Shown here: piece by piece, positions 4,862 to 19,000 of the stretch
Numbering within the stretch: the stretch's first letter is position 1
Layout of the letters: each line of letters opens with the position of its first letter
The notes under the pieces: model-generated
What the model was told of the DNA's origin: nothing
Seen by the model: only the letters and a program-made list of their open reading frames with translations
The model's database searches: none
Position numbers and translations under genes: made by a program
Source of the DNA: Candidatus Latescibacterota bacterium
GTDB taxonomy: Bacteria; Latescibacterota; UBA2968; GCA-2709665
Assembly (NCBI GenBank): GCA_965237675.1
Contig: OZ250150.1
Location: 3,360,001-3,424,000, forward strand
Length of the DNA stretch: 64,000 nucleotides
Reading direction: 5' to 3'

Positions 4862-5040
4862 AACCCAAAGCTTTTTCGGGTGGGGTACGGTCGTCTGTTT
4901 TTTCAGGCGGCCGTCGTATTTTCAGCGGTAACGGACGTTGGAGTCCGGTGATTGAGGTCTCACGGGTGCCGCGTACCCAGACCGCATATCGGCAACGCGA
5001 CGCGGTTCGTTCAGATCCATAACGGGGAGCATCTGCAGGC

Positions 5041-8000
5041 ATGTTTAGAGTGTGTATCGGCATTATTCTCCTGTTTGTCTTCCCGCCGTGCGTGGAAGCA
5101 CGCCCGCGGATGGATTGGACGGTGTTCCGGCGCGAAGACGGTCTTGCCCACAACGTGGTGACGGCAGTCGTAGAGGCACAAGACGGCGCGCTCTGGTTTG
5201 CCACACGTGAGGGTATATCCCGCTATGACGGTCGGGCATGGCGCACCTATGGCGAAGAAGAGGGGTTGCCCGGCAGCAGTTTCCGCGGGCTCTTCGAAGC
5301 TGAGAACGGCACCCTGTGGGCCACCGGAGGTGTCGGGTTTCGCTGGCAGGCTGAAAACCACATCGCCCGTCTGGTGGGCGACCGGTGGGAGCCGGTCATA
5401 CTGCCCGGAAACCTTGCGGGTGTCGGCGTGGGGCCGATTGTCGGCGTCGCAGGAGGCGGCCTCTGTTTTGCAACGGCGGGTTTGGGTATACTCCACTATG
5501 CCGGTGACGAGTGGAAGACCATTGACGAAGAGGATGGGCTGGCGTCCAATAATGTGCAATGTCTTTTGCGGTTGAAGGACGGGGCCGTGTGGGCGGCGTA
5601 CGCAGGGGGACGGCCCGGAAGCAGGTCTTTCCTACGCCGTCCCAGACGCGGGCGGGGCGGGGGCGTTAGCCGATTCGATCCTTCGAAGAATGAATGGGTG
5701 GAGGTTGCCGCGCCCGGCGAACTGGCGGGTGGCGCGGTGACCGCGATGGCGCAGGCTGCGGACGGCGCCATCTGGCTGGGAACGGAGAACAGAGGGGTAC
5801 TGCGTTACGACGGGTTAAATTGGCAGGAGTTTACTGCGGCAGACGGGTTGCCCGCGAACCCGGTGCTGGCCGTCGCTGCGGCGCCTGATGGGTCAGTATG
5901 GGTGGGAACCGTCGGTGGCGTCGTTCGATTCATGGCGCCGGAAACGGAATTGTCGGCCGGGGATCACTGGCAGATAGTTCAGATTTTTACGGAAGAGAAC
6001 GGCCTGCCGAGCAATCTGGTCACATCCATCTGTGTCAGCAGGGCCGGCGCCGTGTGGGTGGGAACCGCATGGGGTGTCGCGCGGTACGGTGCAACAGGTT
6101 GGGACCAACACAGCCGGTGGGCCGGTGCGGCTGACCCCGGCGGCGTGGCCCTTGAACGTACGGCGGATGGCCGTTTGTGGGCAGCCACAGGAGAGCGAAT
6201 CTACGAATTTGACGGCGCCAACTGGCATGAGGCTTACCGGATCCGGACCCATGGCCGCCGTCGGCCCGGGCCTATTGTGGCGTTAAATAAAGGAAAGGGC
6301 GGTACGCTCTGGGCTGCCATCGATCGACGTGTGTTTCGTTTTGACGGTGCCTATTGGAAGGAATTCGGGTTGCCGATGTCTGGACCCGGATCCCGTATTC
6401 TATCGATTTTCCCCGCACGTGCGGGCGGGGTGTGGGCGGGCACGCGAGCCGGGCTATTTCGATTCGACGGCGAGGAATGGTCCGCGCATGCGCCTGCGGT
6501 GACAGGAGGGGTGCACGCCGTATACGAGTCCGGCGATGGCGCCCTCTGGCTTGGCGCCGACAGCGGCGTCGTTTTGGATAAAGACGGCGAACGCCGGGTT
6601 TTCACCTCGGCCGACGGGTTGTCTGGGGAGCCTGTCGTCGCGCTGGCCGAGGCGCACGGCGCGATCTGGGCCGCAACGCGCTTCAAGGGGATGTTTCGAT
6701 ACAATCGGGGCGTGTGGGAAGCCGTGCCAAGGGGCGATGAGACCGTTTTCGCGGGAGCGCACCGTTTTTTTGTGGATGACGATGGCATACTCTGGTTGGC
6801 CTCCCTTGCGATCGGCGCGGTTCATACCGATGGCGAGGTCTGGACGCGCTACACGACGCGCAGCGGCCTTCCGGGCGCCCGGGTGTGGGATATCGCGCAG
6901 GACAGGGATGGACGGTTCTGGTTTGCCACAGATAAGGGACTGGGATGTTATTCGCGGGACACCGATGCGCCTGAAACCGTGCTGTCGATGCCTTCCAACG
7001 AGGTGGCGCCCTACCAGAGTGTCCTGGTAAAATTCTCCGGTCAGGACGCGTGGAAACAGACACCGACACACGAGTTGAAATACGCGTGGAGGCTCAGTGG
7101 AGAGGTTTGGATGCCGTTTGTTCGGGTCAGAACGCCTGGAATCTGGACGCCGTTTACAGCTGAAGATCATACGCTTTTAAGCGGGCTTGAACCCGGCCGT
7201 CATACCTTTGAAGTTCGTGCGATGGATCGGGAATTCAATATCGATCCGACACCAGCCCGGCATTTTTTCATGGTTCTGGCCCCCGTGTGGCAGCGGCCGT
7301 GGTTCGTGGCGCTCAGCGTATTCTCGATCGTGGCTCTTGGCGTGTCGTCCGGAGTTGCGCTGCAACGGCACCGGCGGTGGCGCGAGGCCCAAGCCCGCCA
7401 GATCCAAGAATTGGAATCCGAGTTACAGCAGGCGCACAGGATGCAGATGGGTCTGCTGCCTACGGCCACGATACGAGACGAATTTTTTGAAATTGCAGGA
7501 GTCTGCGCGCCCGCGAACCACGTCGGTGGCGACTATTTCAACTATTTCTGGCTGGACGAGGCACGGAGGGTTCTTGGCTTTGGCGCGGCAGATGTCTCGG
7601 GAAAGGCGATGGAGGCGGCCGTGCGGGCGATGCAGTTGAGCGGGATCTTCAGGTACGAGTTTCGAGGTGAAAAGCCGCTGACCGAGGTTGCGAAGCGGCT
7701 GGATGAGGATTTGAAGGAACAGATGGATGAGGCCAGTTTCATTACCTGTTGTCTGGGCAAGCTGAATCCGGTAGCGGGGCGCGTCGACCTGGTCAACGCC
7801 GGCCATCCCTTCCCATATCATTATTGCGCAGCGGCGGGGGAGTTGCGGGCCCTTCATCTGCCGTCCATTCCGCTGGGTTTGGTTTTGCCCCCGGGAAGCC
7901 CCGGCGGGCATGCCGAGGCCGCCATCGATGTGGCACCGGACGACCTGCTGGTGTTCTACAGCGATGGCGTGACCGACATGCGGAATGGGGCCGGGGAGTT

Positions 8001-8181
8001 TTATGAGACAGACCGGCTGGAAAAAACGATCAAGGCGCATGTTCGGGCAAGCGCCGCGGACCTGGTCTCTGTGATTCTCGAGGACGTTTACCGTTTCAAG
8101 GGAGATGCGCCTCAGCCGGACGATATGACGCTTCTGGTGATTCGAATGCTGGATGGGGGGCGTGCGGACGCAAGCGGATGA
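5041..8181 (+). CDS. Beta-propeller sensor + Y_Y_Y + TM + SpoIIE/PP2C phosphatase
   Basis: Signal peptide, repeated DGL/GxLWxxT blades, LSGLEPGRHTFEVRAMD, PVWQRPWF-TM, VGGDYF, ADVSGK, YSDGVTD, DDMTLL. Confidence 0.9.
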   Translation: MFRVCIGIILLFVFPPCVEARPRMDWTVFRREDGLAHNVVTAVVEAQDGALWFATREGISRYDGRAWRTYGEEEGLPGSSFRGLFEAENGTLWATGGVGFRWQAENHIARLVGDRWEPVILPGNLAGVGVGPIVGVAGGGLCFATAGLGILHYAGDEWKTIDEEDGLASNNVQCLLRLKDGAVWAAYAGGRPGSRSFLRRPRRGRGGGVSRFDPSKNEWVEVAAPGELAGGAVTAMAQAADGAIWLGTENRGVLRYDGLNWQEFTAADGLPANPVLAVAAAPDGSVWVGTVGGVVRFMAPETELSAGDHWQIVQIFTEENGLPSNLVTSICVSRAGAVWVGTAWGVARYGATGWDQHSRWAGAADPGGVALERTADGRLWAATGERIYEFDGANWHEAYRIRTHGRRRPGPIVALNKGKGGTLWAAIDRRVFRFDGAYWKEFGLPMSGPGSRILSIFPARAGGVWAGTRAGLFRFDGEEWSAHAPAVTGGVHAVYESGDGALWLGADSGVVLDKDGERRVFTSADGLSGEPVVALAEAHGAIWAATRFKGMFRYNRGVWEAVPRGDETVFAGAHRFFVDDDGILWLASLAIGAVHTDGEVWTRYTTRSGLPGARVWDIAQDRDGRFWFATDKGLGCYSRDTDAPETVLSMPSNEVAPYQSVLVKFSGQDAWKQTPTHELKYAWRLSGEVWMPFVRVRTPGIWTPFTAEDHTLLSGLEPGRHTFEVRAMDREFNIDPTPARHFFMVLAPVWQRPWFVALSVFSIVALGVSSGVALQRHRRWREAQARQIQELESELQQAHRMQMGLLPTATIRDEFFEIAGVCAPANHVGGDYFNYFWLDEARRVLGFGAADVSGKAMEAAVRAMQLSGIFRYEFRGEKPLTEVAKRLDEDLKEQMDEASFITCCLGKLNPVAGRVDLVNAGHPFPYHYCAAAGELRALHLPSIPLGLVLPPGSPGGHAEAAIDVAPDDLLVFYSDGVTDMRNGAGEFYETDRLEKTIKAHVRASAADLVSVILEDVYRFKGDAPQPDDMTLLVIRMLDGGRADASG

Positions 8182-8789
8182 AGTGTGAGACCTCACACGG
8201 ATAAAGAGGGAAACTACCTGACCTTGGCACCTCCCGAAAAATTGCAGATCAATTCTGCGTCAAGACCCGCATTTTTTCGCATTGTCCCTTCGACCCTTAA
8301 CATCTCTCCCGTCAAGGCTCTTCTCCAGAATTCAAAGCTCATTAACGACCCCAATGGCTAATCCCCCTTCTCCAGATCCCAAACCATCGCCAAGATCGCC
8401 GTCTTACATTGAATAATTGAAAGCAAGAAACACAAGACATAGCGAGATTTACAGTTACACGTTCTCGGATCGATTCTACTCATCTAATTCACAGCTAGAC
8501 TCGATCGATGTCGACATGCCGCTTATCGTGTCATCCTTCATGGACAGAGCTATCGCTCACCACGACCCCAACAAACGAGACATAAAATCACCATTGGAGC
8601 TGAGATCCACAAATTTCAATCATAAATCCCTACAGAGACTGCCCAATATTCCTCCCCCACTGGCGCTATTGAGCCGATCGTATGGGTTGGCCCCTTTCAC
8701 CAATCATTGACAAGCTGTGAATCTCATTGCGTCTCTGAAGACGCTCAGAGCTTTGGTGGCCAAGGTCTACTAGAAGAGGACGTTTACTG

Positions 8790-9167
8790 ATGGATGCAGA
8801 CCAAACCTGCCGCCCAATGGAACCAATGAAGGATGCCATAACTAGCATGGCAATTGAATCTTGGCGGTTTACAAAGGTATTCGACCGTTTGCTCAACAAG
8901 CTAGATGCTGGCGAACAGAAACGATACAGGAGCCAAGTTCGATGGTTCACCAAAAGGTTCGAAGAGGCTCTGAAGCTGGCTGATTTGCGAATCGTCGACG
9001 TTGAGGGGCATCCCTTTGATCCAGGCATGGCCGCTACACCTCTGAACATCGATGAATTCGACGCTGAAGATTTCTTGATAGTCGATCAGATGATTGAGCC
9101 TATCATTATGACGAACGATCGTTTGGTTAAGACAGGAACTGTCACGTTGAGGAGGGTGAAACAATGA
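8790..9167 (+). CDS. Short GrpE-like protein (helical part plus beta-domain only)
   Basis: GHPFDP ... IEPIIM ... LVKTGTVTL resembles GrpE C-terminal G.FDP...GY...L.R.A.V; ATGA overlap with Hsp70 gene. Confidence 0.65.
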   Translation: MDADQTCRPMEPMKDAITSMAIESWRFTKVFDRLLNKLDAGEQKRYRSQVRWFTKRFEEALKLADLRIVDVEGHPFDPGMAATPLNIDEFDAEDFLIVDQMIEPIIMTNDRLVKTGTVTLRRVKQ

Positions 9168-11662
9168 GAAATTTCGTAGGTATCGACTTGGGGACAACAA
9201 ACAGCGCGATCTGCTCCTTTAACGGTTCCGAAACTTGCATTTGGAAGAGCCCCGAACAGAACGATGTAACACCCTCTGTCATCCATATAGATCGAAGGGG
9301 CAATAAGTATGTCGGTAAAAGGGCTTGCGATTCAGCCCGATACAGTCCCGATAATTCTGCAATGTTATTCAAGCGACTTATGGGAACAAGCACGCCAATT
9401 CGACTAGCGGCAGTCAATCTCACTAAAACGCCGGAAGAATGCTCTGCGGAGGTATTGAAGGTGCTGTTTGGCTATCTCTCTGAGGAGATCAGAAACGACC
9501 CGGATACAGGTACCGTGATCACTGTACCCGCGGCATTTAACCAAATGCAGAAAGACGCGACCATGCAAGCGGCCAGCATGGCAGGTATAGGAAAGGTTGC
9601 ACTCATGCAGGAGCCGGTTGCTGCGGTGATGAGAGTCATGCGATCAAGTAGCACTGATGGTATGTTTCTGATCTACGACCTTGGCGGAGGCACGCTAGAT
9701 ATAGCTATCGCCGAAAGCATCAGTGGAAGGGTTAACCTTCTTGCACACGGCGGGATTGCCATGTGTGGTGGACGGGATTTCGACCGCGTTCTATTTGACA
9801 ATGTTGTTCGTAGTTGGCTGCTTGAGAATTTCGATTTGCCCGAAGATTTGCCGGCGAACCCGACGTTTAAATCGCTCATCCGTCTAGCCATCTGGGCGAC
9901 CGAACGGGCGAAGATCGAACTCTCCGCACGCGAAGAGGCAGTTATAAGCCTTTCCGAAATAGAGACACGGGTCAGGGATCTCAAAGATAACGAAATCTAC
10001 CTCGACATTTCCTTGCAGCGCGGCACCTATGACAATCTGATAGCCGAGCGCGTAGGTGAATCGATAGATTCCGCTCGTGAGACAATGGCAAAGGTAGGAA
10101 TCCCCCCACACGATTTAGAGCGCATCGTGTTTGTCGGTGGCCCAACCATTTACAAGCCATTGCGGGACAAAGTCGCCTTCGAGTTAGGAATCCCCGGAAG
10201 CACAGATGTTAATCCGATGACAGCCGTGGCCGAAGGGGCCAGTATATTTTCTGAATCCATCGACTGGGGCTCCCACAATCGCTCAAGGAAGAAATCCCGA
10301 GGGCAGATTTCCCCGGTGGGTGGGCTGGCTCTGACTTTCAACTATATCGCCCGTACACCTGACTCAAGAGCCAAGATTGCCGTTGAGATGGCAGGCCAAA
10401 ACGCCTCTGGTTTTGAAATCCAAATCGACAGTATCGATACCGGCTGGACCTCGGGTCTTATTCCACTCAAGCATGGTGCAATAATTGAAGTAACCCTGAC
10501 AAAGACCGGCGATAACACATTCAAGGTTTTCGTGTTTGATTCTGTGGGCGGCCCTATAGCCCTCGAGCAGGACAAGATCATAATCACGAAGACTGCTGTT
10601 ACCGTTGACGCCATTCCGGCCTCGCATTCAGTTGGCATTGAGGTTTTGGAGAAGCTAGGTGGGCATCCGGTACTCGAATACCTGGTTCGGTCAGGTGAAA
10701 CGCTACCCCAAAAGGGCAAGAGGGTACTAAGAGCTGCCGAATCGCTTAAGGCAGGAGCATCTCACTCACTCAATTTTAAGCTTTGGGAAGGAGAAATCGA
10801 AGAGCCCATCAGCGACAATCGTCCCATCGGCGTTTTGAAGATTTCCGGCTCCGATTTCGATGATGGTGTGATTCCCATAGGCGCTGACCTTGAATGTGAT
10901 TATGAGATCTTGGATTCGGGGAACATCGTCATAGAAGTTTCCGTTCCATGCATCGGCGGTACATTCTATTCGGGTAAGAACTTCTATTCTCGGCAGGAAG
11001 GCCAGCTTGACTACACTTCAGATTCAGTTCGGATCGTCGAAGAAGGAGAACGAACACTCAGGCGCATTGATGAAATCAACCAAGTCGTTGACAACGCGAA
11101 ACTTGACCAAGCAAAGCAGAAACTTGAACCTGCAATTTCGCTCGATCCCAACGAAGCAGAAACCGAAAAAGCCCAAGAGGCCATGGAAAAAGTCTTCGAA
11201 GCGAAACAACTCCTTGCTCAGATTAGGAAGGCTCATCTCAAGGAGATCCGTCAAATTGATCTGGACGGGGTGGTCTCCTTTTTTGATGAGTATGTCCGCC
11301 AGCACTCACGCCCATCAGAGGCGACCTCATTCGATAACTTGGCGAAAACAGCGCAACGCTCCATTGACAGAAACGACAATGATTTTGAATATCACTTGGA
11401 TGAACTTAAAGGAAAAAACTTCGAAATCCTGTGGCGTCAGGATTGGTTCGTTGTCGAACAATTTAAAAGGATGATTGAGCTGCCTCACCTATTTGCAGAT
11501 AAGCTTCTCTCTCAGGAACTTACCAACGTTGGCATGCAACTAATGCGTTCCAATGATATTGAGAAACTCCGCGATGTTGCCGCCCAGCTAATGATGATCC
11601 GGATTGACAAAGGTCCCGACAACGAGATGTTCGGTGTTACAACCAATATTATCAGGGGATGA
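9164..11662 (+). CDS. Atypical Hsp70/DnaK-family protein, 832 aa
   Basis: GIDLGTTNS, ITVPAAF, EPVAA, YDLGGGTLD, GGRDFD, VFVGG; non-canonical C-terminal half; SD GGAGG. Confidence 0.92.
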   Translation: MRNFVGIDLGTTNSAICSFNGSETCIWKSPEQNDVTPSVIHIDRRGNKYVGKRACDSARYSPDNSAMLFKRLMGTSTPIRLAAVNLTKTPEECSAEVLKVLFGYLSEEIRNDPDTGTVITVPAAFNQMQKDATMQAASMAGIGKVALMQEPVAAVMRVMRSSSTDGMFLIYDLGGGTLDIAIAESISGRVNLLAHGGIAMCGGRDFDRVLFDNVVRSWLLENFDLPEDLPANPTFKSLIRLAIWATERAKIELSAREEAVISLSEIETRVRDLKDNEIYLDISLQRGTYDNLIAERVGESIDSARETMAKVGIPPHDLERIVFVGGPTIYKPLRDKVAFELGIPGSTDVNPMTAVAEGASIFSESIDWGSHNRSRKKSRGQISPVGGLALTFNYIARTPDSRAKIAVEMAGQNASGFEIQIDSIDTGWTSGLIPLKHGAIIEVTLTKTGDNTFKVFVFDSVGGPIALEQDKIIITKTAVTVDAIPASHSVGIEVLEKLGGHPVLEYLVRSGETLPQKGKRVLRAAESLKAGASHSLNFKLWEGEIEEPISDNRPIGVLKISGSDFDDGVIPIGADLECDYEILDSGNIVIEVSVPCIGGTFYSGKNFYSRQEGQLDYTSDSVRIVEEGERTLRRIDEINQVVDNAKLDQAKQKLEPAISLDPNEAETEKAQEAMEKVFEAKQLLAQIRKAHLKEIRQIDLDGVVSFFDEYVRQHSRPSEATSFDNLAKTAQRSIDRNDNDFEYHLDELKGKNFEILWRQDWFVVEQFKRMIELPHLFADKLLSQELTNVGMQLMRSNDIEKLRDVAAQLMMIRIDKGPDNEMFGVTTNIIRG

Positions 11663-11715
11663 TTTGTGACAAATTGAAGTGGACCCCAAAAACTGGACCG
11701 GCATCAATGACCGAA

Positions 11716-12975
11716 TGGACTTAACCTGATTTGGTGGACGCTCATCTTCTGGTTATCTTGATGAGACATAAGGAGGTTCATCGTGCCCGATACACATCCT
11801 CCGTATCCGCTTGAGGATCGTCAGCAGATGGTAGAATTGGTACGAGCGGGGCGCTCACCAGAATGAACTGGCGATGGTTAACGAGTCCACCGGCCAGTCG
11901 ATCCGTGACGAAGTGGCTCAGGTGGCTCGAGATTGCGGCCGCCGGGACGACGATCTAACGACATAGGCGTGTGAAGAACTTGCGCGGTTGCACAGCGGGA
12001 ACAAGCAACCACGTATTAAACGTGAGATCCTCTCAAAAGCCGCCGCCTGATTCGCACGGGAGACCGACTCCATTCCTCAAAAGCCTTCGCGTTTGAAATG
12101 GCGCACCGGGCCGTGTACGTTGTGGCCACGGAATGGCGCGTGATGGGGAACTCCACCAGCGAGTATATTGCGGGGCTGAAGCGTCAGATCTCAAGACGTG
12201 CGGTAGCTGATTTGGTCCTCAAGGATCACATTGCGGTACTTCACACGCGATCTTTTGGGACCTATGGCGCACGCCGAAACACACCCAACTGGCATTTGAG
12301 GGCACTAAAACGGGCCCCAAGCGGTTTGTCCGGCTACTGCGGAAAATCGTCACTATGGGGTTAGCCAACACAAAGGCGTGCTCGCTACCTCGAAGGGCCA
12401 GCAGGAAAGCACTGTCGCCGATTTGGCTAATCGGGAATTTAGGGTCGTAGCACCCGATTGTTTCTAGGAGCCTGCGCTCCAGAACGGATTTGAGCACTGA
12501 ACTACACTATATATAGTATTGTAAGTTTTCTGCGGCGCAGACTCCTAGGAGGCCGATATCACGTACTTCCCCATCTGGGCGGGCTTCCTTTGCTTTTCCG
12601 TGGCTCTGGATGCCGTCTAAAGGCGCATCGTAAGATGGGCGATCGACTCGCATTTACACACCAAGGTGGCGCTGTATGCCATGGATACAGCCTTGCGGCA
12701 TCGTCGTCCCATGGACGTGATCGATCATTCCATTGAGGGATCGCGGTATACCTGCCTCGCCTTCGGTCTGCGCTACAAGAATGCTGGTGTCCGTCCCTAC
12801 AGTGGATCGGTCGGAGACTGCTTGGCGAACGCGATGTGCGAGAGTTTCTTCGCTACGGTAGAATGCGAACTGCTCGATCGCCACTGGTTTCGCACGTTCC
12901 TGGCCGCGCAACGGGCCGTCTTCGAGTACATTGAGGTGTGCAATAGTCAGCATCGTATGTATTCAGCTTTGGAAA
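11716..12975 (+). mobile_element. Decayed IS3-family insertion sequence (orfA/orfB pseudogenes); right end not recognisable
   Basis: IRL-like TGGACTTAACCTGATTTGGTGGAC; orfA remnant from GTG 11783 (PPYP..RQQMVELVRAGRSPE..REILSKAAA*FARETD); orfB remnant (ADITY..W.GF; GSVGDCLANAMCESFFATVECELL); multiple stops and frameshifts. Confidence 0.9.
12468..12544. mobile_element. 77-bp MITE (IS5-like ends) inserted in the IS3 orfB remnant
   Basis: 17-bp terminal inverted repeats GAGCCTGCGCTCCAGAA / GAGTCTGCGCCGCAGAA (14/17 match), flanked by CTAG at 12464-12467 and 12545-12548; removing it restores the P-D-x-x-(W)-x-A-D-I-T-Y frame. Confidence 0.8.
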
Positions 12976-13064
12976 TAGGACTCACTCACATCCCATGAGG
13001 AAATACATTAGTCACTTGGTTGATACCTAGGCCGATAACCGCCCACGAATCCGGTAAACTCAAA

Positions 13065-14741
13065 ATGGACCTTCTAAAAAATCCCTTCCATATTCTAACC
13101 GCTACTCCCCGAGACAATCGACGAAGGATTATGGAACTGGCAGATGAACGTGATCTGCTACTAGATTCGAGTGCATGTATACAAGCGCGTTCTGATTTGA
13201 CAAATCCCCGAAAGAGACTCTTTGCCGAAATCGCGTGGTTGCCAGGATTGAGCCCAAAACGCTCTACCGAAGTGTTGCAGTTGTTGGAATCAACGGGAGA
13301 GGATCTCGACATGAACAATTGTGCGTTCTTTTCGGATACTCTCGGATTGGGAAAAACGACCCCCACCGCTCGTACCAACTTGCTTGCCGCCTGGCTATCC
13401 CGTTTGCCTGATTACTCGCCAGACGAAGTTGCGGAAAGGATTCTCGAAATTGCCTGGGCCTTTGAGGATATCAACTCAGAAGCGCTTCGCACAACCATCA
13501 ACGACGAACGCATTGTGTCCAGTTTCCCCGAAATAACAGATCTGTCGGCGGTAGAAGTGGAAATACAGAATCTGCGTCGATATTATCTTCAGGTCATCGA
13601 ATCGGCCTTGGACAATCTACCGACTAACGAGCTTGTCGAAGCGGTGGCCGACGTGGTTGAATCGGCAACAGACAATGGAGACGATCACGGGCCAATGTTG
13701 ATTGATGACCTAGTCGGATGGTATGAGCTAAGTGTTCAGGAGCCACTTAACAAGGAAGAAGGAAATATCAAGGCATTGGTCGAGAAGCTCCGAATGTCGG
13801 CTGACGGAGAACTCCCAGACTCTACGTTGGCCCCCATTATCAACGAACTCATTCGGGTCGTCAAAAACTGGGACAAGGTTGCGCAGCCGATCCAAGTCAA
13901 CACAAAGAGCCGGGGATTGGACCATAATGCAAGTCATCAGGTGGCCGATCTTGTGCGAGGATTGGCAATCCACCTTTCCAACGAACACGGCAAGCTCGGT
14001 TTCTCACGACAGCTTATGGGGATGCTGCAAGAAGTGTTCGCAGAGGTTGTTGAAGTTGCCGAGCGCACCGCTGAAGACATAAGTGCACTGGATGATATCG
14101 CCGAGAAAATTGACGACGAAAAAAAACGGGCAGAAGAATGGCGCAAAGAAATCACCTATGAGGCCGACATAGGCACACTCTTTAAACAAAAGCTCCGAAT
14201 TTCACCTGAAGGTATCGAATGGAAAGGATGTCAATGGGATCTTGATTCCATTACACGGGTTCGTTGGGGAGGAACACGACATTCAGTAAACGGCATTCCC
14301 ACCGGAACAATCTACAGCGTTATTTTCGGTGACGACTCTGACTACGCTTCCATTAGGTTGAAAAAGGAGGCCATCTACAGCGATTTCATAGACTGTTTGT
14401 GGCGGGCTGTTTGTGTGAGGTTGTTAACCGAGTACCTCAATTACCTGCGTGACGGCGGGAAAATTACATTCGGCTCCGCCGTAGTGACGGACCACGGGTT
14501 GGAGTTGGAGCGCAAGCGGCTATTTTCAAGCAATGAGCTAGTTTTTTGCCGATGGTGTGAACTCGTAATGTGGAACCACGCTGGCGTCTTCTACACAGGA
14601 AAAAAAGGTGACAAGAAGCTGGCTTCTGCTTTCTCATATCAGGAAGATGACAATATACACATACTTGAAGCCATGATTCGTATGTTGCAAAAACAGGGTG
14701 GCAACAGATTGAGTAGCATCTTGGGGAATAACAGCGAATGA
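13065..14741 (+). CDS. Hypothetical protein associated with Hsp70; J-domain-like N-terminus without HPD, helical middle, PH-like C-terminal repeats
   Basis: Long ORF with island composition; NPFHILTATPRDNRRRI start; beta-rich C-terminus (LRISPEGIEW..., VVTDHGLEL...). Domain calls are inference. Confidence 0.75.
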   Translation: MDLLKNPFHILTATPRDNRRRIMELADERDLLLDSSACIQARSDLTNPRKRLFAEIAWLPGLSPKRSTEVLQLLESTGEDLDMNNCAFFSDTLGLGKTTPTARTNLLAAWLSRLPDYSPDEVAERILEIAWAFEDINSEALRTTINDERIVSSFPEITDLSAVEVEIQNLRRYYLQVIESALDNLPTNELVEAVADVVESATDNGDDHGPMLIDDLVGWYELSVQEPLNKEEGNIKALVEKLRMSADGELPDSTLAPIINELIRVVKNWDKVAQPIQVNTKSRGLDHNASHQVADLVRGLAIHLSNEHGKLGFSRQLMGMLQEVFAEVVEVAERTAEDISALDDIAEKIDDEKKRAEEWRKEITYEADIGTLFKQKLRISPEGIEWKGCQWDLDSITRVRWGGTRHSVNGIPTGTIYSVIFGDDSDYASIRLKKEAIYSDFIDCLWRAVCVRLLTEYLNYLRDGGKITFGSAVVTDHGLELERKRLFSSNELVFCRWCELVMWNHAGVFYTGKKGDKKLASAFSYQEDDNIHILEAMIRMLQKQGGNRLSSILGNNSE

Positions 14742-15056
14742 GAATCAGAAATACCAAACTTGGATTTTCCAGTCTAATCAGTTTGACATCGAATTCGAGA
14801 GATTTCGTTCAGCCTGAAACTTATAAAGCGTCCTACATTTCTTGGGCAGCAGTCGCACTAAATACAGTGTTCGCGTTACTGTATTTGACAATATCTCCAC
14901 CACCAGTTCGGTTGTAGAATGTTGATTAGGGTGAAGTCTGTGTATGGGGTGATTGCCTTCTTGCATTTCAGAAGCAACCGGAGATGGTTCTTGAAGTCGC
15001 CGCACAAATGCAAGGGAAAAATTAAAGTGCCGTGGCTGCGATTTCTTGACTTCCAA

Positions 15057-15911
15057 CTAAGCAGCATCGCCGATTCTTTTCTCCGCGGATTCCACGGTCT
15101 GGGTGATTAGCGTGGCGATAGTCATGGGTCCAACGCCACCGGGCACCGGGGTGTATGCCGCGCATCTGTGGACGACTGCCGAGAGTTCCACATCTCCGAC
15201 AGGGCCCGGATGGAAACCGGCATCGATGACGACGGCGTTATCTGCGATCCAGTCGGCTTTGATGAATTCCGGTTGCCCCACGGCGCCAACGACAATATCG
15301 GCAGCGAGGACAATTCGGGGAAGATTTCGGGTTCTGGAATGGCAGATGGTCACGGTGGCATTGGCATTCAGCAGCATCATAGCCAGTGGTTTACCCAGAA
15401 TAGGGCTTCGACCGACGACAACGGCGTTTCTGCCTTCCACCGGGATATCGAAATGCAGAAGAAGCTTCATGATGCCTGCGGGTGTTGCCGCGCCGTAGGC
15501 TGACGCTCCCATAGCCATCAGACCGAAACCGTGTGCCGTGACACCGTCCACGTCCTTTTCGGTCGAGATCCGGTCGAAGCACGCGCGTTCGTGGACGTAG
15601 GCGGGAACCGGGTGCTGCAGAAGAATTCCGTGCACGTCGGGATCGGCGTTGAGCTTGTCGATCTCGGCCAGGAGTTCGCGTGTGGTCGTTTCTTGCGGCA
15701 GCAGGACTTTCAATGAGTCCATGCCCACCCGTTTGCAAGCGTTGCCCTTCATTCGCACGTAAGTGGCTGATGCGGGGTCGTCTCCAACCAGGATGGTGCC
15801 CAGAACGGGAACCTGACCGCCCGCCCTTCCCTTAATACGTGCCACGCGGCCTTTCAGTTCAGTTTCAATCTGTCTGGCAAGCGATTTGCCATCCAGGACT
15901 GTTGCTGCCAT
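15057..15911 (-). CDS. folD: Bifunctional methylene-THF dehydrogenase/cyclohydrolase
   Basis: [47 protein letters not shown]; SD GGAGG. Confidence 0.97.
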
Positions 15912-16031
15912 CGCGCCTCCCTTTGCGACCATACATTCTGGCACGGATTCGGTGGCCTCACCGCGTCGAAGTCTGCTCATCGGGTAACGGGCGGCGGCCC
16001 CCTCGCTCCGAAATCCACCCTCAGCGAATCC

Positions 16032-19000
16032 CTAAGTTTCCTCGCACCATGCTCGGGCGTTCTGGAAGATCTGCAGCCAGGGCGAAGCGCTCAGGCAATT
16101 CTTCCAGGATTCCGGCATCCAGCCCCATTGCCATTTCAAAAACGCTCGTTCTGGATGCGGCATCATCGCCAGGTGGCGTCCGTCAGGGGAACAAAGGGCG
16201 GCGATGCCGTGCGGAGAGCCGTTGGGATTGAACGGATAGGATTCGGTTATGCAATTGCCGTCGTCGATGTACCTGACGGGGGCCAGGTTGTTCCGGATGA
16301 CACGGTCGAGCGTTTCCGGTCTGGGAAAATGGATCCGGCCCTCTCCGTGGGCAACCCAGATGCCCAGGGAAGCGCCGGCCATGTGCTTGAACATCACAGC
16401 CGGGCTTTCCTGGATCTGTGCGGTGACGAAGCGTGATTCAAAACGCCCCGATGTATTCTGGATAAAGCGCGGTTGAAACTCGGTCTTGGTTCCCGCCCAG
16501 GGCACCCACCCGAGCAGGGCCATCAACTGGCAGCCATTACAGACTCCCAGACTGAATGTGTCAGTTCGTTCGTGGAACGCTTGAAACTGATCCCGGAGAC
16601 GCGGACTGAACCGGATGACCCCGGCCCAGCCCTTGGCGGAGTCCAGGACGTCGGCATAACTGAATCCACCCACAAAGGCAACGCCTCGAAAGCCGTCAAG
16701 TCGGATCCGATCGGCCTGAAGATCGGACATCGTCACGTCCCAGGGTTCCAGGCCCGCGGCGTGGAACGCAGAGGCCATCTCACGGTCACCGTTGCTGCCT
16801 TCCTCGCGAACGATGGCAACAGGAATCTTTGTTCCGGATTTCAGAATTTCTGGCGCTGTCGGCGCAGGCGTAAACGGAAGGGTGTATCGGGGCCCGGTGC
16901 GCTGTCTCAGCGTCAGCCGTTCCTGATCTACGCACTGCGGGTTCGCCTGCAGCCGTTCGAGACGGTAGCTCGTTTCCTCCCACAGGTCGCGCAGAGTCTC
17001 CATGTCGTCGTCGAGTACGGTCATGCCGTTCAGGGCGATACGGACCGAAGTGTCCGCCGTGGTTTTTCCAATGGGAATACATGGCACGTCCGCGGCATTG
17101 AGGGTTTCGAGAACGTGGCGTACTTTGTTGGCGTGCACCTCGAAGACCAGGCCCATCTCCTCGGAAAAGAGAGACGAGATCGGATCTGAGGATGTCGGGA
17201 GATCGATCCGGATGCCGCAGTTCCCGGCGAAAGCCATTTCGAGCATAGCAGTGAGGATGCCGCCGTCGCTCCGGTCGTGGCCCGCGGCCACGCTGTTTTC
17301 GGCAATGAGTTGTTGCAAGGCGTTGAAGGCGCGTTTCAGCAGACCGGGGTCCTCCACGTCGGGCGGCGTATCGCCGATCTGGCTATAGACCTGGGCAAGG
17401 GCCGAGCCTCCCAGGCGGGTTTTACCGTCGGCAAGGTCGATGTAGAGCAGGCGCCCCGCTTCGGGGAGTTTCAGGTCCGGAGTCACGACTTTGGTCACAT
17501 CCGGACAGGTTACATAGGCCGAAATGACAAGGGCCCCAGGCGCGGTCACGGTCTCTCCGGTCCCGCCCGGGCCGGGTGCCAGCGCGGCCATTGAGAGACT
17601 GTCTTTCCCGCCGTCTATAGCGATACCCAATTCAAGCAGGAAATTCACCAGCGACCTGGCCGCATCGTAGAGCGCGGCGCCCTCGCCGGGTAGTTTCGCC
17701 GCCCACATCCAGTTTCCTGAGCATTTCACGTCTTCCAGCGCGCTGACCTGGGCCCATACCAGATTGGTTAGCGCTTCCCCGACACTCATCCGAGCCATCG
17801 CGGCGGGGTCCAGGAGTCCGATGACGGGTTGTTCCCCGATGGCAGTGGCGGCACCTGTTATGCCGAAGTGGCTCTGCGCGATCACGGCCACGTCCGAAAC
17901 CGTGAGTTGGAGAGGACCGGCGCACTGCTGCCGGGCAACCAGGCCGGTGACGCTTCGGTCGACCTTGTTGGTAAGAAAACGCTTGGAGCCAACCGACACA
18001 AGGCGCAGCACTCTCTCCAATGCGGACTTTACGGTAATGTCCTCGGGAAGAACCAGAGGCGCCAATTCGGTTGGCCTGCGGTACAGTTCAAAGTTTTTGC
18101 GAGGCATGTCGCCCAGCACTTTTTCCAGTTCCAGGTCGACGGGGGTGGTGTCGTCGGTTTCGTCGTAGAGGACGATTCTTCCGTTTCCGGTTACGTGGCC
18201 GACGAAGGCCGCCTTTATCTTTTCCCGCCTGCACAGGTTCTTGAACGCGTCCGCGTGTCGGGGATGCAGAAGCAGGGCGTCGTTTTCCTGGTATTCGGCG
18301 CCCCAGATCTCCAGGACAGAAAGCGACCGGTCACCGACGGGCAGGGCACGAACGTGTATGCGGGCGCCTTCGGGCGCTACGATTTCCTTGAGAACGTTAC
18401 AGTTACCGCCGGCCCCCTGGTCGTGGATGCTGACGATGGGGTTCTCCGCGCCCATTTCCACGCAGGCACGAATGACCCGGTTCACTTTCTGCTCCATTTC
18501 GGCATCGCCCCGCTGCACGGCGTTAAAGTCCAGTTCCGCTGTGTTCTCACCCTGGACCATCGACGAAGCCGCCCCGCCCCCCATCCCGATGCGGTATGCA
18601 GGGCCACCGAGTTTGACCACCCACATCTTCTCTTCAGGGGTTCCTTTCCGCGTGTGCCGGGCGTCAATCTGGCCGATACCACCGGTGAACATGATGGGTT
18701 TGATCCATTCGCGGCGCTGGCCGTCAGGCAGTCGAAGACCGAAGGCGCGGGTATAGCCCTGGATGAGTGGTTCGCCGAATTTGTTACCGTAGTCGGACGC
18801 GCCGTTACTGGCTTCAATCTCGATCCGGAGGGGGGAGGCGAAATTGTCGGAATATTGAAACGAGGGGTCCTCCCAGGGCATTTCATAGTCCGGGATACGC
18901 AGATTGCCCACGCAGTAGGCTGCGGTACCTGCAACGACAAGGGCGCCGCGCCCGGCGGCATGTACGTCCCGGATGCGGCCTCCCGTACCGGTTTCGGCAC

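Follow-up and report, generated by a model that had tools for sequence, protein, structure and literature searches.

The foreign island and its genes

The window analysed here, a stretch of 64,000 bases from Candidatus Latescibacterota bacterium (GenBank assembly GCA_965237675.1, contig OZ250150.1, positions 3,360,001 to 3,424,000), carries three co-oriented genes on the forward strand, encoding a GrpE-like protein of 125 amino acids (8790-9167), a heat-shock protein 70 (Hsp70) of 832 amino acids (9164-11662) and a protein of 558 amino acids, hereafter p3 (13065-14741). The first two genes overlap as ATGA at 9164-9167, and p3 is read from the ATG at 13065, the start common to its relatives (MDLL(Q/K)NPF...), rather than from the TTG at 13020 with which the open reading frame (ORF) lister begins. 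The interval between the Hsp70 gene and p3 is occupied by a degraded insertion sequence (IS) of the IS3 family (11663-13064, forward strand), inside which lies a palindromic insertion of 81 bases (12464-12544) resembling a miniature inverted-repeat transposable element (MITE), and p3 is followed by the pseudogene remnant of a fifth gene (14738-15022, forward strand), which in relatives encodes a tagged, tail-anchored membrane protein of about 250 amino acids. As argued below, this trio is what remains of a larger acquired cassette from which an AAA+ motor and the tagged partners have been lost, the Hsp70 gene having since been kept under purifying selection.

All of these features lie within a low-GC island of 6,895 bases (8177-15071), whose guanine-plus-cytosine (GC) content is 0.496, as against 0.597 in the left flank, 0.591 in the right flank and 0.582 in the genome. 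The island sits between two convergent host genes, both syntenic in genomes of the same genus: on the left, a sensor phosphatase gene with Reg_prop and SpoIIE (PP2C) domains (5041-8181, forward strand; Pfam E=5.9e-45 and 1.3e-40, respectively), and on the right, folD (15057-15980, reverse strand; THF_DHG_CYH_C, E=6.4e-55, and THF_DHG_CYH, E=2.5e-37). Three of the five same-genus genomes queried with positions 5000-18000 of the window (G008, G009 and G010) present an empty site, in which the flanking genes are only about 85-120 bases apart, and homology to the same genus ends near 8182 and restarts near 15071. Contigs from three public sequencing runs (X7, X8 and X12) bridge 8176 to 15072 and omit the 6,895 bases; with 22 bases on the shorter side of the joint at 90% likeness, they are consistent with an empty site only, and the case for that site is carried by the same-genus genomes. 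The p3 gene is found in none of 60 relatives (14 congeneric, and 7, 31 and 8 from the same family, order and class, respectively), and a profile of 79 sequences recovers it in a single one of 168 genomes sampled across the phylum, namely this one. The island was acquired horizontally and is a real insertion, because same-genus genomes hold the empty site, its GC content is low and p3 was not found in the rest of the phylum sample. The co-orientation, low GC content, convergent flanks and ATGA coupling described in the initial annotation of the locus are thus all present, and its proposal of horizontal acquisition holds. No direct repeats were found at the island boundaries. On the right side, homology is regained only some 15 bases into folD, counted from its 3' end (15057-15071), and the last few codons of this gene may be island-derived or variable.

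The complete cassette in relatives

Related loci were fetched from 6 genomes, 14 metagenomes and 2 plasmids, and six query proteins were mapped on them; the neighbourhood counts given here refer to these 22 loci and one Escherichia coli record and are not a census. The order of genes in the relatives is GrpE-like, Hsp70, a Cdc48-type AAA+ ATPase and p3, usually followed by one to three membrane proteins, the GrpE-like gene always being the first. The AAA+ gene stands between the Hsp70 gene and p3 in all 17 loci showing that interval (two of which, L002 and L035, are the same contig), and it adjoins p3 in 18 of the 22, the additional case being L028, where the 3' part of the AAA+ gene directly precedes p3; the other four are not judgeable, since L032-L034 lack upstream sequence and L003 begins inside an IS3-type transposase gene. 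An Hsp70 gene directly followed by p3 was seen in 0/22 loci. The expectation of the initial annotation that the three genes would be conserved neighbours elsewhere is borne out, and in all judgeable relatives an AAA+ gene intervenes between the second and the third.

The AAA+ protein of the cassette has 479-490 amino acids and a PF00004 AAA domain that matches several members of the Cdc48/p97/VAT group with E of about 1e-48, and it is of the single-ring type. In two loci (L007 and L038) a gene for a peptidoglycan-binding protein is also located between the Hsp70 gene and p3. On the 3' side of p3, most loci encode the tail-anchored protein of about 250 amino acids and a protein of about 480 amino acids in which a single transmembrane helix is combined with a PG_binding_1 domain and repeats rich in Cys; in some of these membrane proteins, the domains that bind peptidoglycan are periplasmic. 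These membrane proteins are otherwise unrelated, and they start with the same tag, (K/R)(K/R)GFSGLSDL(A/T/V)S; in the form of the pattern GFS.L..L within about 35 residues of the ORF start, the tag was recovered in 21 ORFs from 13 of the 16 loci scanned (for example, L001:11654-12406 and L001:12449-13909) and was not found in L008, L037 and L038. The window proteins keep the same gene order as the main group of relatives and are 66-73% (GrpE-like), 79-83% (Hsp70) and about 57-71% (p3) identical to them, and the distribution of the cassette is sporadic, with about 70-80% identity across phyla.

A complete cassette also occurs in a chromosomal island of E. coli HeN100 (L042, NZ_CP044443.1, 4106280-4133947), annotated as a hypothetical protein of 124 amino acids, an Hsp70 family protein, an ATP-binding protein and two hypothetical proteins, beside an IS3 element, RADAR rdrB, a DptF fragment and an integrase remnant. 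A DNA query matched only 2 of 5,426 complete E. coli genomes, and HeN100 offers a convenient natural copy for experiments.

What the window copy has lost

A tblastn search with the AAA+ protein gave no match in the window, and nothing elsewhere in the genome takes its place, the genome search having given only two generic AAA+ matches, with 27% and 35% identity over the ATPase domain. In the slot of the AAA+ gene, positions 11716-12967 of the window are collinear with an intact IS3 copy of the same-genus genome G009, at 73-75% nucleotide identity over 745 and 423 bases. The G009 element has open frames of 110 and 305 amino acids (OrfA/OrfB), as against at least 10 stop codons and several single-base insertions or deletions (indels) in the transposase frames of the window remnant, and no intact copy of this IS3 exists in the genome. 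Similar copies of the MITE-like insertion are present at several other places of the genome and in G008.

The remnant of the fifth gene, whose start overlaps the p3 stop as ATGA, aligns by tblastn with residues 1-94 of the 250-amino-acid protein of L001 (40% identity, E=1.4e-13); it contains three in-frame stops, is cut off near 15022 at the island edge, and its N-terminal tag is degenerate (KLGFSSLISLTS). Across the whole genome, the tag motif in an N-terminal context is confined to this pseudogene, the 15 other matches to the pattern having been classed, on visual inspection, as internal or as belonging to short frames. The gene for the peptidoglycan-binding protein is likewise absent from the window by tblastn. 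Of the five or six genes of a cassette, the window copy thus retains the first, the second and the fourth. At the level of sequence, the comparison with relatives establishes it as a reduced copy of a widespread mobile cassette, in which an IS3 element, now decayed itself, replaced the AAA+ gene.

Insertions of this kind are not confined to the window. In Oligella urethralis an IS3-family transposase fragment (L003:1-573) is situated directly upstream of p3, the same position as that of the remnant in the window, and L008 and L042 carry IS3 elements just after the cassette, so that IS3 seems to target or trim the cassette repeatedly.

Selection since the loss

A sister strain diverged by 2-3% is represented in four public runs from four studies (X7, X8, X10 and X12); the island, IS remnant included, is present in it at the identical position. 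As this remnant is common to both strains, the loss of the AAA+ gene is older than their split; the 81-base MITE, in turn, must have moved recently, since it is missing from the sister strain, whose contig passes from 12463 to 12545 with 255 bases flanking the joint on either side and 7 bases that could belong to either. The depth of the sister-strain contig is only 4-8, and identical differences are found in all four runs.

Divergence between the strains is uneven along the island. The sequenced part of the Hsp70 gene (9820-11662) has 23 differences in 1,843 bases (1.25%) and no indels, the IS remnant (11663-12463) has 32 differences in 801 bases (4.0%) and two indels, and the pieces of p3 available from X12 have 32 differences in 1,291 bases (2.5%), also without indels. 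The IS remnant has therefore diverged about three times faster than the Hsp70 part (Fisher P=2e-5). Among the Hsp70 differences, 14 are synonymous and 9 non-synonymous, which gives proportions of 3.3% (pS) and 0.64% (pN) of the respective sites and a pN/pS of 0.19 (binomial P=1e-4 against a neutral expectation of 77% non-synonymous changes), on the assumption that 16 of the 55 differences of the contig, the others being listed by position, fall beyond 12124. Judging from these substitution patterns, Hsp70 is kept under purifying selection after the loss of the motor and the partners, because the sister strain shares the same broken island, the pN/pS of the gene is about 0.19 and the adjoining IS remnant evolves about three times faster; the GrpE-like partner has probably been kept in the same way.

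These data also bear on the possibility that the island is a dead relic, whose three remaining genes have no function and are merely unbroken so far. Such an explanation would accommodate the loss of two conserved cassette components, the failure to find a sigma-70-like promoter upstream of the trio (region 8150-8800, which has no DNA similarity to the sequence upstream of the cassettes of relatives either) and the divergence of p3, whose 2.5%, compared with about 4% in the IS remnant, indicates only weak constraint. It would also fit the private changes of the window proteins at otherwise invariant columns, which number 15 in Hsp70 (0-7 in relatives) and 6 in the GrpE-like protein (0-1 in relatives), in line with identities to two outgroups that are about 2 points below those of the relatives; we read the lineage of the window trio as constrained but somewhat accelerated. 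It is nevertheless difficult to reconcile with 4.5 kb of ORFs having stayed intact beside a 1.25-kb IS remnant with at least 10 stops and a 0.3-kb remnant of the fifth gene with three, with the low pN/pS of an Hsp70 gene that has diverged one third as much as the IS, and with a sister-strain contig in which indels are restricted to the IS part and absent from the Hsp70 part. On balance, a trio devoid of function is considered unlikely.

The Hsp70 and GrpE-like proteins

The Hsp70 of the island exceeds the DnaK of the same genome (639 amino acids) by 193 residues, close to the 200 estimated initially. Residues 5-362 match the Pfam HSP70 family (PF00012; E=4.6e-49, 167.6 bits against a cut-off of 20.6), and in an alignment with the DnaK structure 2v7y the protein keeps the motifs GIDLGTTNS, FKRLMG (with the lysine that we take to be the equivalent of K70), MQEPVAA and DLGGGTLD. 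It falls far below the cut-offs of the NCBIfam equivalog models (TIGR02350, NF001413 and TIGR01991), with 192 bits against 822.55 and 190 against 648 for DnaK, and 178 against 708.55 for HscA, in agreement with the earlier suggestion that it stands apart from the canonical members.

Beyond residue 362, plain sequence searches gave no match, and the profile of the C-terminal part retrieved only chance-level matches among the sequences of the Protein Data Bank (PDB). Aligned by hhalign with the genome's own DnaK, the same profile places residues 489-586 on residues 391-475 of DnaK (36% identity, E=9e-4, probability 23%). Residues of about 485-600 are on this basis probably the substrate-binding beta domain, and an insert of about 115 amino acids would therefore follow the ATPase domain (residues 1-365). 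The remainder is a conserved helical C-terminus (620-815), which is the only well-predicted region of an otherwise poor AlphaFold 2 (AF2) model, built from 25 close sequences, with a mean predicted local distance difference test score (pLDDT) of 59, and left out of the fold searches. The protein is conserved over its full length among relatives (87-90% mean column identity), and its C-terminal half matches no fewer than 3,237 clusters at 90% identity; nearly all have 831 amino acids, and they are named in their sources only as "Hsp70 family protein" or "molecular chaperone DnaK".

The 125-amino-acid protein, whose length is as first annotated, is classed here as GrpE-like and not as a member of GrpE, the resemblance being real but weak. 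Its match to the Pfam GrpE family (PF01025) has E=0.0045 and 17.1 bits, under the cut-off of 25.8, and covers profile positions 57-161; 10 of 12 members of its family match at E<=0.1, none of them above the cut-off. Against the genome's own GrpE, hhalign gives E=5.8e-4 over 56 columns spanning G..FDP, and the profile has no match at E<=1 among PDB sequences. The protein covers the last two-thirds of GrpE but not the long N-terminal helix, which in GrpE accompanies a four-helix bundle and a beta domain, and it is probably a nucleotide-exchange factor, to judge from these profile alignments.

The p3 protein as a probable adaptor

The p3 family is large, with 1,758 clusters at 50% identity retrieved with E<=0.001 and 629 with E<=1e-30, and it includes homologues of about 70% identity in Vibrio cholerae, V. 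parahaemolyticus, Shewanella, Proteus mirabilis, Oligella, Thiohalobacter, Desulfatitalea and an Acidobacteria metagenome-assembled genome; a tblastn search with p3 of 50,697 phage records gave no match. Conservation within the family extends over roughly the first 345 residues, whereas transmembrane or other modules can take the place of the C-terminus. The AF2 model of the window protein (mean pLDDT 95.6) consists of an all-helical module (1-363) and two domains, each a PH-like beta-sandwich plus helix (365-462 and 467-544). Residues 365-452 resemble the PH-GRAM domain of MTMR6 (2yf0; Z 8.9, root-mean-square deviation 2.6, 77 aligned residues), residues 361-551 resemble the PH-PTB region of IRS-1 (1qqg; Z 8.3), and a FERM lobe (3qij; Z 8.6) is matched as well; these Z values are near the background that the tool states for unrelated models, and a tandem PH-like fold of the C-terminus is plausible from the model. 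With Foldseek, p3 had no match in the PDB at E<=0.001, and for residues 1-363 VIA-align returned generic helical-bundle matches only, the query having been the whole 558-residue model, in which the N-terminal 60 residues were effectively unprobed.

The initial annotation had described the product of the third gene as J-like on account of its first helix. A J domain (PF00226), which has four helices and the HPD motif between the second and the third, is not supported by sequence: p3 has no Pfam match, none of 31 aligned members has HPD at the corresponding loop, and when the profile of 79 sequences was compared by hhalign with the DnaJ of the same genome, the J domain was not aligned (E=0.62, for an unrelated region). 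In the model, residues 7-56 form four short helices with the topology of a J domain, and "J-like" is, for p3, a topological resemblance only. A protein-atlas search with residues 1-80 returned a single unnamed cluster, whose score of 0.75 is too low to be useful, and hhalign found no relation between p3 and the 250-amino-acid protein of the cassette.

The 558-amino-acid protein had also been taken as the client or effector of the Hsp70. Its conserved N-terminal module combined with exchangeable C-terminal modules indicates, by contrast, an adaptor rather than a client; its family alignment suggests that p3 is a conserved adaptor whose C-terminal module can be exchanged, and probably one for Hsp70. 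In the complex prediction for the full Hsp70 with residues 1-130 of p3, the median interface score (ipSAE) was 0.50 against 0.00 for the best control, with three runs agreeing in at least 89% of contacts and a partner pLDDT of at least 70. Of 157 solved complexes, 116 reach the mark of the tool, as do 2 of 215 mismatched pairs, and scores of 0.60 or lower comprise only 18 of the solved complexes and both passing mismatches, such passes being more often wrong unless the pairing is likely beforehand; contact between the p3 N-terminus and Hsp70 is thus weakly supported by the model. Two further arrangements of p3 were noticed: a library protein of 1,078 amino acids (P0278) combines a canonical, full HSP70 (Pfam E=2e-197) with a p3-like region that follows it (539-1077), which may be a fusion or a gene-calling artefact, and L037 has a second, divergent p3-like N-terminal module upstream of the cassette on the opposite strand (292-1269, reverse), its other p3 being at 5772-7922, so that adaptors can be duplicated.

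Better client candidates than p3 may be found among the membrane proteins. DnaK-type substrate-binding domains favour a basic stretch followed by a core rich in Leu and Phe, and the tagged proteins are preferred as candidates because the tag fits this preference; the tag itself is a candidate recognition peptide for the cassette Hsp70 or its adaptor.

The proposal with which the locus was originally described, a complete and self-contained Hsp70 switch dedicated to the 558-amino-acid client or effector, can now be assessed. It has in its favour that the three ORFs are intact, co-oriented and, for the first two, translationally coupled, that Hsp70 is under purifying selection without an AAA+ partner, and that the p3 N-terminus is weakly predicted to contact Hsp70. 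It is already largely refuted by the relatives, in which an AAA+ ATPase and mostly also tagged membrane proteins, both lost from the window, accompany the trio: the AAA+ gene is beside p3 in 18 loci, and in none does p3 directly follow the Hsp70 gene. The gap between the two genes in the window is moreover a decayed IS3, the fifth gene survives only as a pseudogene, and the conservation pattern of p3 is that of an adaptor and not of a client. A self-contained switch is consequently regarded as highly improbable.

Defence context and comparison with known systems

Known defence genes occur within the fetched flanks of 9 of the 13 loci with usable flanks, often on both sides, an association that is strong but qualitative, counted without a random-locus control, and thus not a tested enrichment. 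They comprise McrBC and Hachiman (L001); CBASS with CapH/CapP and a restriction-like gene (L002); a type I restriction enzyme, PDC-S02 and Hachiman (L006); a type I restriction enzyme (L026); a type IV-like restriction ATPase (L030); Orf5/HEC-06 and ZacA (L036); DrmD of DISARM (L038); and, as annotated, Zorya and BREX-2 (L008) and RADAR RdrB with a DptF fragment (L042). As for the other four, L007 is cargo of a Tn7-like element beside metal-resistance genes, L005 lies beside the conjugation genes TraC/TrbI, L037 has only weak ATPase matches in its flanks and L029 has no matches. The proximity to defence genes anticipated in the initial annotation therefore applies to the family but not to the window, where the island is surrounded by housekeeping genes (GreA, an RNA methyltransferase, purL, folD, an HAD hydrolase, an aldo-keto reductase, a PfkB kinase and an MFS transporter). 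A search of PADLOC-DB 2.0.0, the check proposed for a defence assignment, left the three window proteins without a match at E<=0.01. In the complete cassette of L001, the AAA+ domain matches the IetA and TRIP13 models, and Hsp70 has one marginal match (PDC-M61B, E=0.0087).

A different explanation for the family, in which it would be a mobile module for proteostasis or envelope biogenesis that folds, inserts or extracts its own membrane and peptidoglycan-binding proteins, serving the mobile element or helping under envelope stress rather than providing immunity, finds agreement in parts that are all of the chaperone type (Hsp70, the GrpE-like protein and a Cdc48-type unfoldase), in the lack of a nuclease or known toxin domain and of PADLOC models, in partners that are membrane proteins with PG_binding_1 domains, and in the copies located beside TraC/TrbI and next to metal-resistance genes as Tn7-like cargo. 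The defence genes beside the cassette in 9 of the 13 loci, as well as the sporadic spread and the exchanged adaptor C-terminus, which are typical traits of conflict systems, point away from it, and it is kept here as a possible, though rather doubtful, alternative.

No description of a cassette combining Hsp70, a GrpE-like protein, an AAA+ ATPase and p3 was found in the literature, subscription-only papers being outside the search; as far as the literature could be searched, this large, mobile and defence-linked family is undescribed. Precedents include Hsp70-family proteins in other mobile operons. GAP1-N2 GTPase systems are predicted with HSP70, GrpE and DnaJ-fused FNIII proteins (Kaur et al. 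2020; PMC7159879), and CoCoNuT McrBC systems include an Hsp70-like protein, CnuD, for which poor ATPase activity and RNA binding are predicted (Bell et al. 2024; PMC11090510). According to a 2026 preprint, HSP70-like NTPases can substitute for STAND NTPases as switches (10.64898/2026.10.19.760177), and in the accessible sections of a further paper HSP70 is mentioned only in animal domain architectures (PMC8195603). As far as the available portions of the first two reports describe them, both systems resemble the cassette in having an Hsp70-family ATPase in mobile, defence-linked operons, the GTPase systems also with GrpE; they differ in being centred on TRAFAC GTPases or McrBC-type GTPase/nuclease pairs, neither of which is present in the cassette. 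The cassette Hsp70, unlike CnuD as predicted there, keeps its catalytic motifs, and the same portions contain no Cdc48-type AAA+, p3 family or tagged membrane proteins.

Better-known chaperone sets offer a second comparison. DnaK, DnaJ and GrpE form, with the AAA+ disaggregase ClpB, the bacterial Hsp70/Hsp100 bi-chaperone. The cassette is similar to this set in that its Hsp70 has retained the catalytic motifs, the gene immediately before it encodes a GrpE-related factor, a third co-factor is present and, in complete copies, an AAA+ unfoldase as well; in both, an Hsp70 is combined with an exchange factor, a targeting factor and an AAA+ motor. It departs from it in the 115-residue insert and long helical C-terminus of Hsp70, in a GrpE-like protein without the long helix, in a p3 without HPD or a detectable J domain and in a single-ring AAA+ of the Cdc48/p97 type where ClpB has two rings; it is also mobile and sporadic, whereas a housekeeping DnaK/GrpE/DnaJ set is present separately in this genome. 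HscC of E. coli is a specialised second Hsp70 with the membrane-anchored J-proteins DjlB and DjlC, which have true HPD J domains, and it has, to our knowledge, no GrpE-like or AAA+ partner. The cassette shares with HscC a second Hsp70 encoded beside dedicated, partly membrane-anchored co-factors, and differs from it in the absence of HPD and in the presence of a GrpE-like factor and an AAA+ ATPase. Finally, the cassette AAA+ matches the PADLOC IetA models of Gao Iet with E=4e-26 over the ATPase domain; in contrast to that system, the cassette has no IetS protease, the likeness is confined to the generic AAA+ domain of the classic clade, and in the window the AAA+ gene is missing altogether.

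Functional interpretation

Taken together, these data are best explained by an acquired Hsp70 cassette of which the window trio is the remnant, without its motor and its tagged partners but with Hsp70 under selection, the full cassette presumably being a machine that reads tags in the envelope or in conflicts; the probability of this reading as a whole is put at roughly 0.55. In such a machine, Hsp70, recycled by the small GrpE-like protein, would bind the membrane proteins of the cassette itself by their N-terminal tags, p3 would act as an HPD-less adaptor recruiting Hsp70 to the tagged proteins or to the membrane, and the AAA+ ring would unfold or extract the tagged membrane proteins, the outcome being a chaperone-gated change of the cell envelope in conflicts with phages or other mobile DNA. 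The window copy would be unable to run the full pathway, and it most likely persists as a trio of Hsp70, exchange factor and adaptor with a residual or new role as a host chaperone.

Several observations weigh against this interpretation. The defence role is deduced from the neighbourhood only: PADLOC models match no cassette protein except for the generic, IetA-like AAA+ domain, the cassette has no recognisable nuclease or toxin, and among the genes surrounding the island here, all of a housekeeping kind, the sole PADLOC match is a generic methyltransferase domain. The assignments of the individual proteins have weak points as well, as the similarity to GrpE is below threshold, the beta-domain call has an hhalign probability of only 23% and is accompanied by a poor model of Hsp70, and p3 has no sequence similarity to J domains and a predicted binding to Hsp70 that is only weakly supported. 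With regard to selection, the pN/pS value depends on the placement of differences stated above, the private changes at invariant columns are in excess in both Hsp70 and the GrpE-like protein, and the pieces of p3 differ from the IS remnant in divergence only with P of about 0.05, so that p3 may be under relaxed constraint.

A more far-reaching version, to which we give only tentative credence, would make the family a new class of chaperone-driven immunity, in which a dedicated Hsp70 reads the short N-terminal tag of the membrane effectors of the cassette under the direction of an HPD-less adaptor family with swappable sensor modules, and the effectors are fired or reset by a Cdc48-type motor. 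The window would then show a host that, once motor and effectors were gone, retained only Hsp70, its exchange factor and the adaptor under selection, which would represent the domestication of an immune chaperone for a host function.

Irrespective of which function applies, the cassette is very large (at least 3,237 Hsp70 clusters at 90% identity and 1,758 p3 clusters at 50%), and yet it is without a name or a described function among well-studied Hsp70 systems. It departs from two textbook rules, in that no J-domain partner with HPD belongs to it and its GrpE is a truncated one, and it couples Hsp70 to a Cdc48-type ring instead of ClpB. The membrane proteins that bear the tag provide a client hypothesis that is directly testable and, if the cassette is indeed an immune or conflict system, a chaperone-based mechanism would be added to bacterial defence. 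The most interesting result specific to the window is that Hsp70, and probably the GrpE-like protein too, is under purifying selection after the losses; the window can be viewed as a natural dissection, in which the motor and the putative clients are gone and Hsp70 is still selected, and this argues that the Hsp70 core may have an activity of its own.

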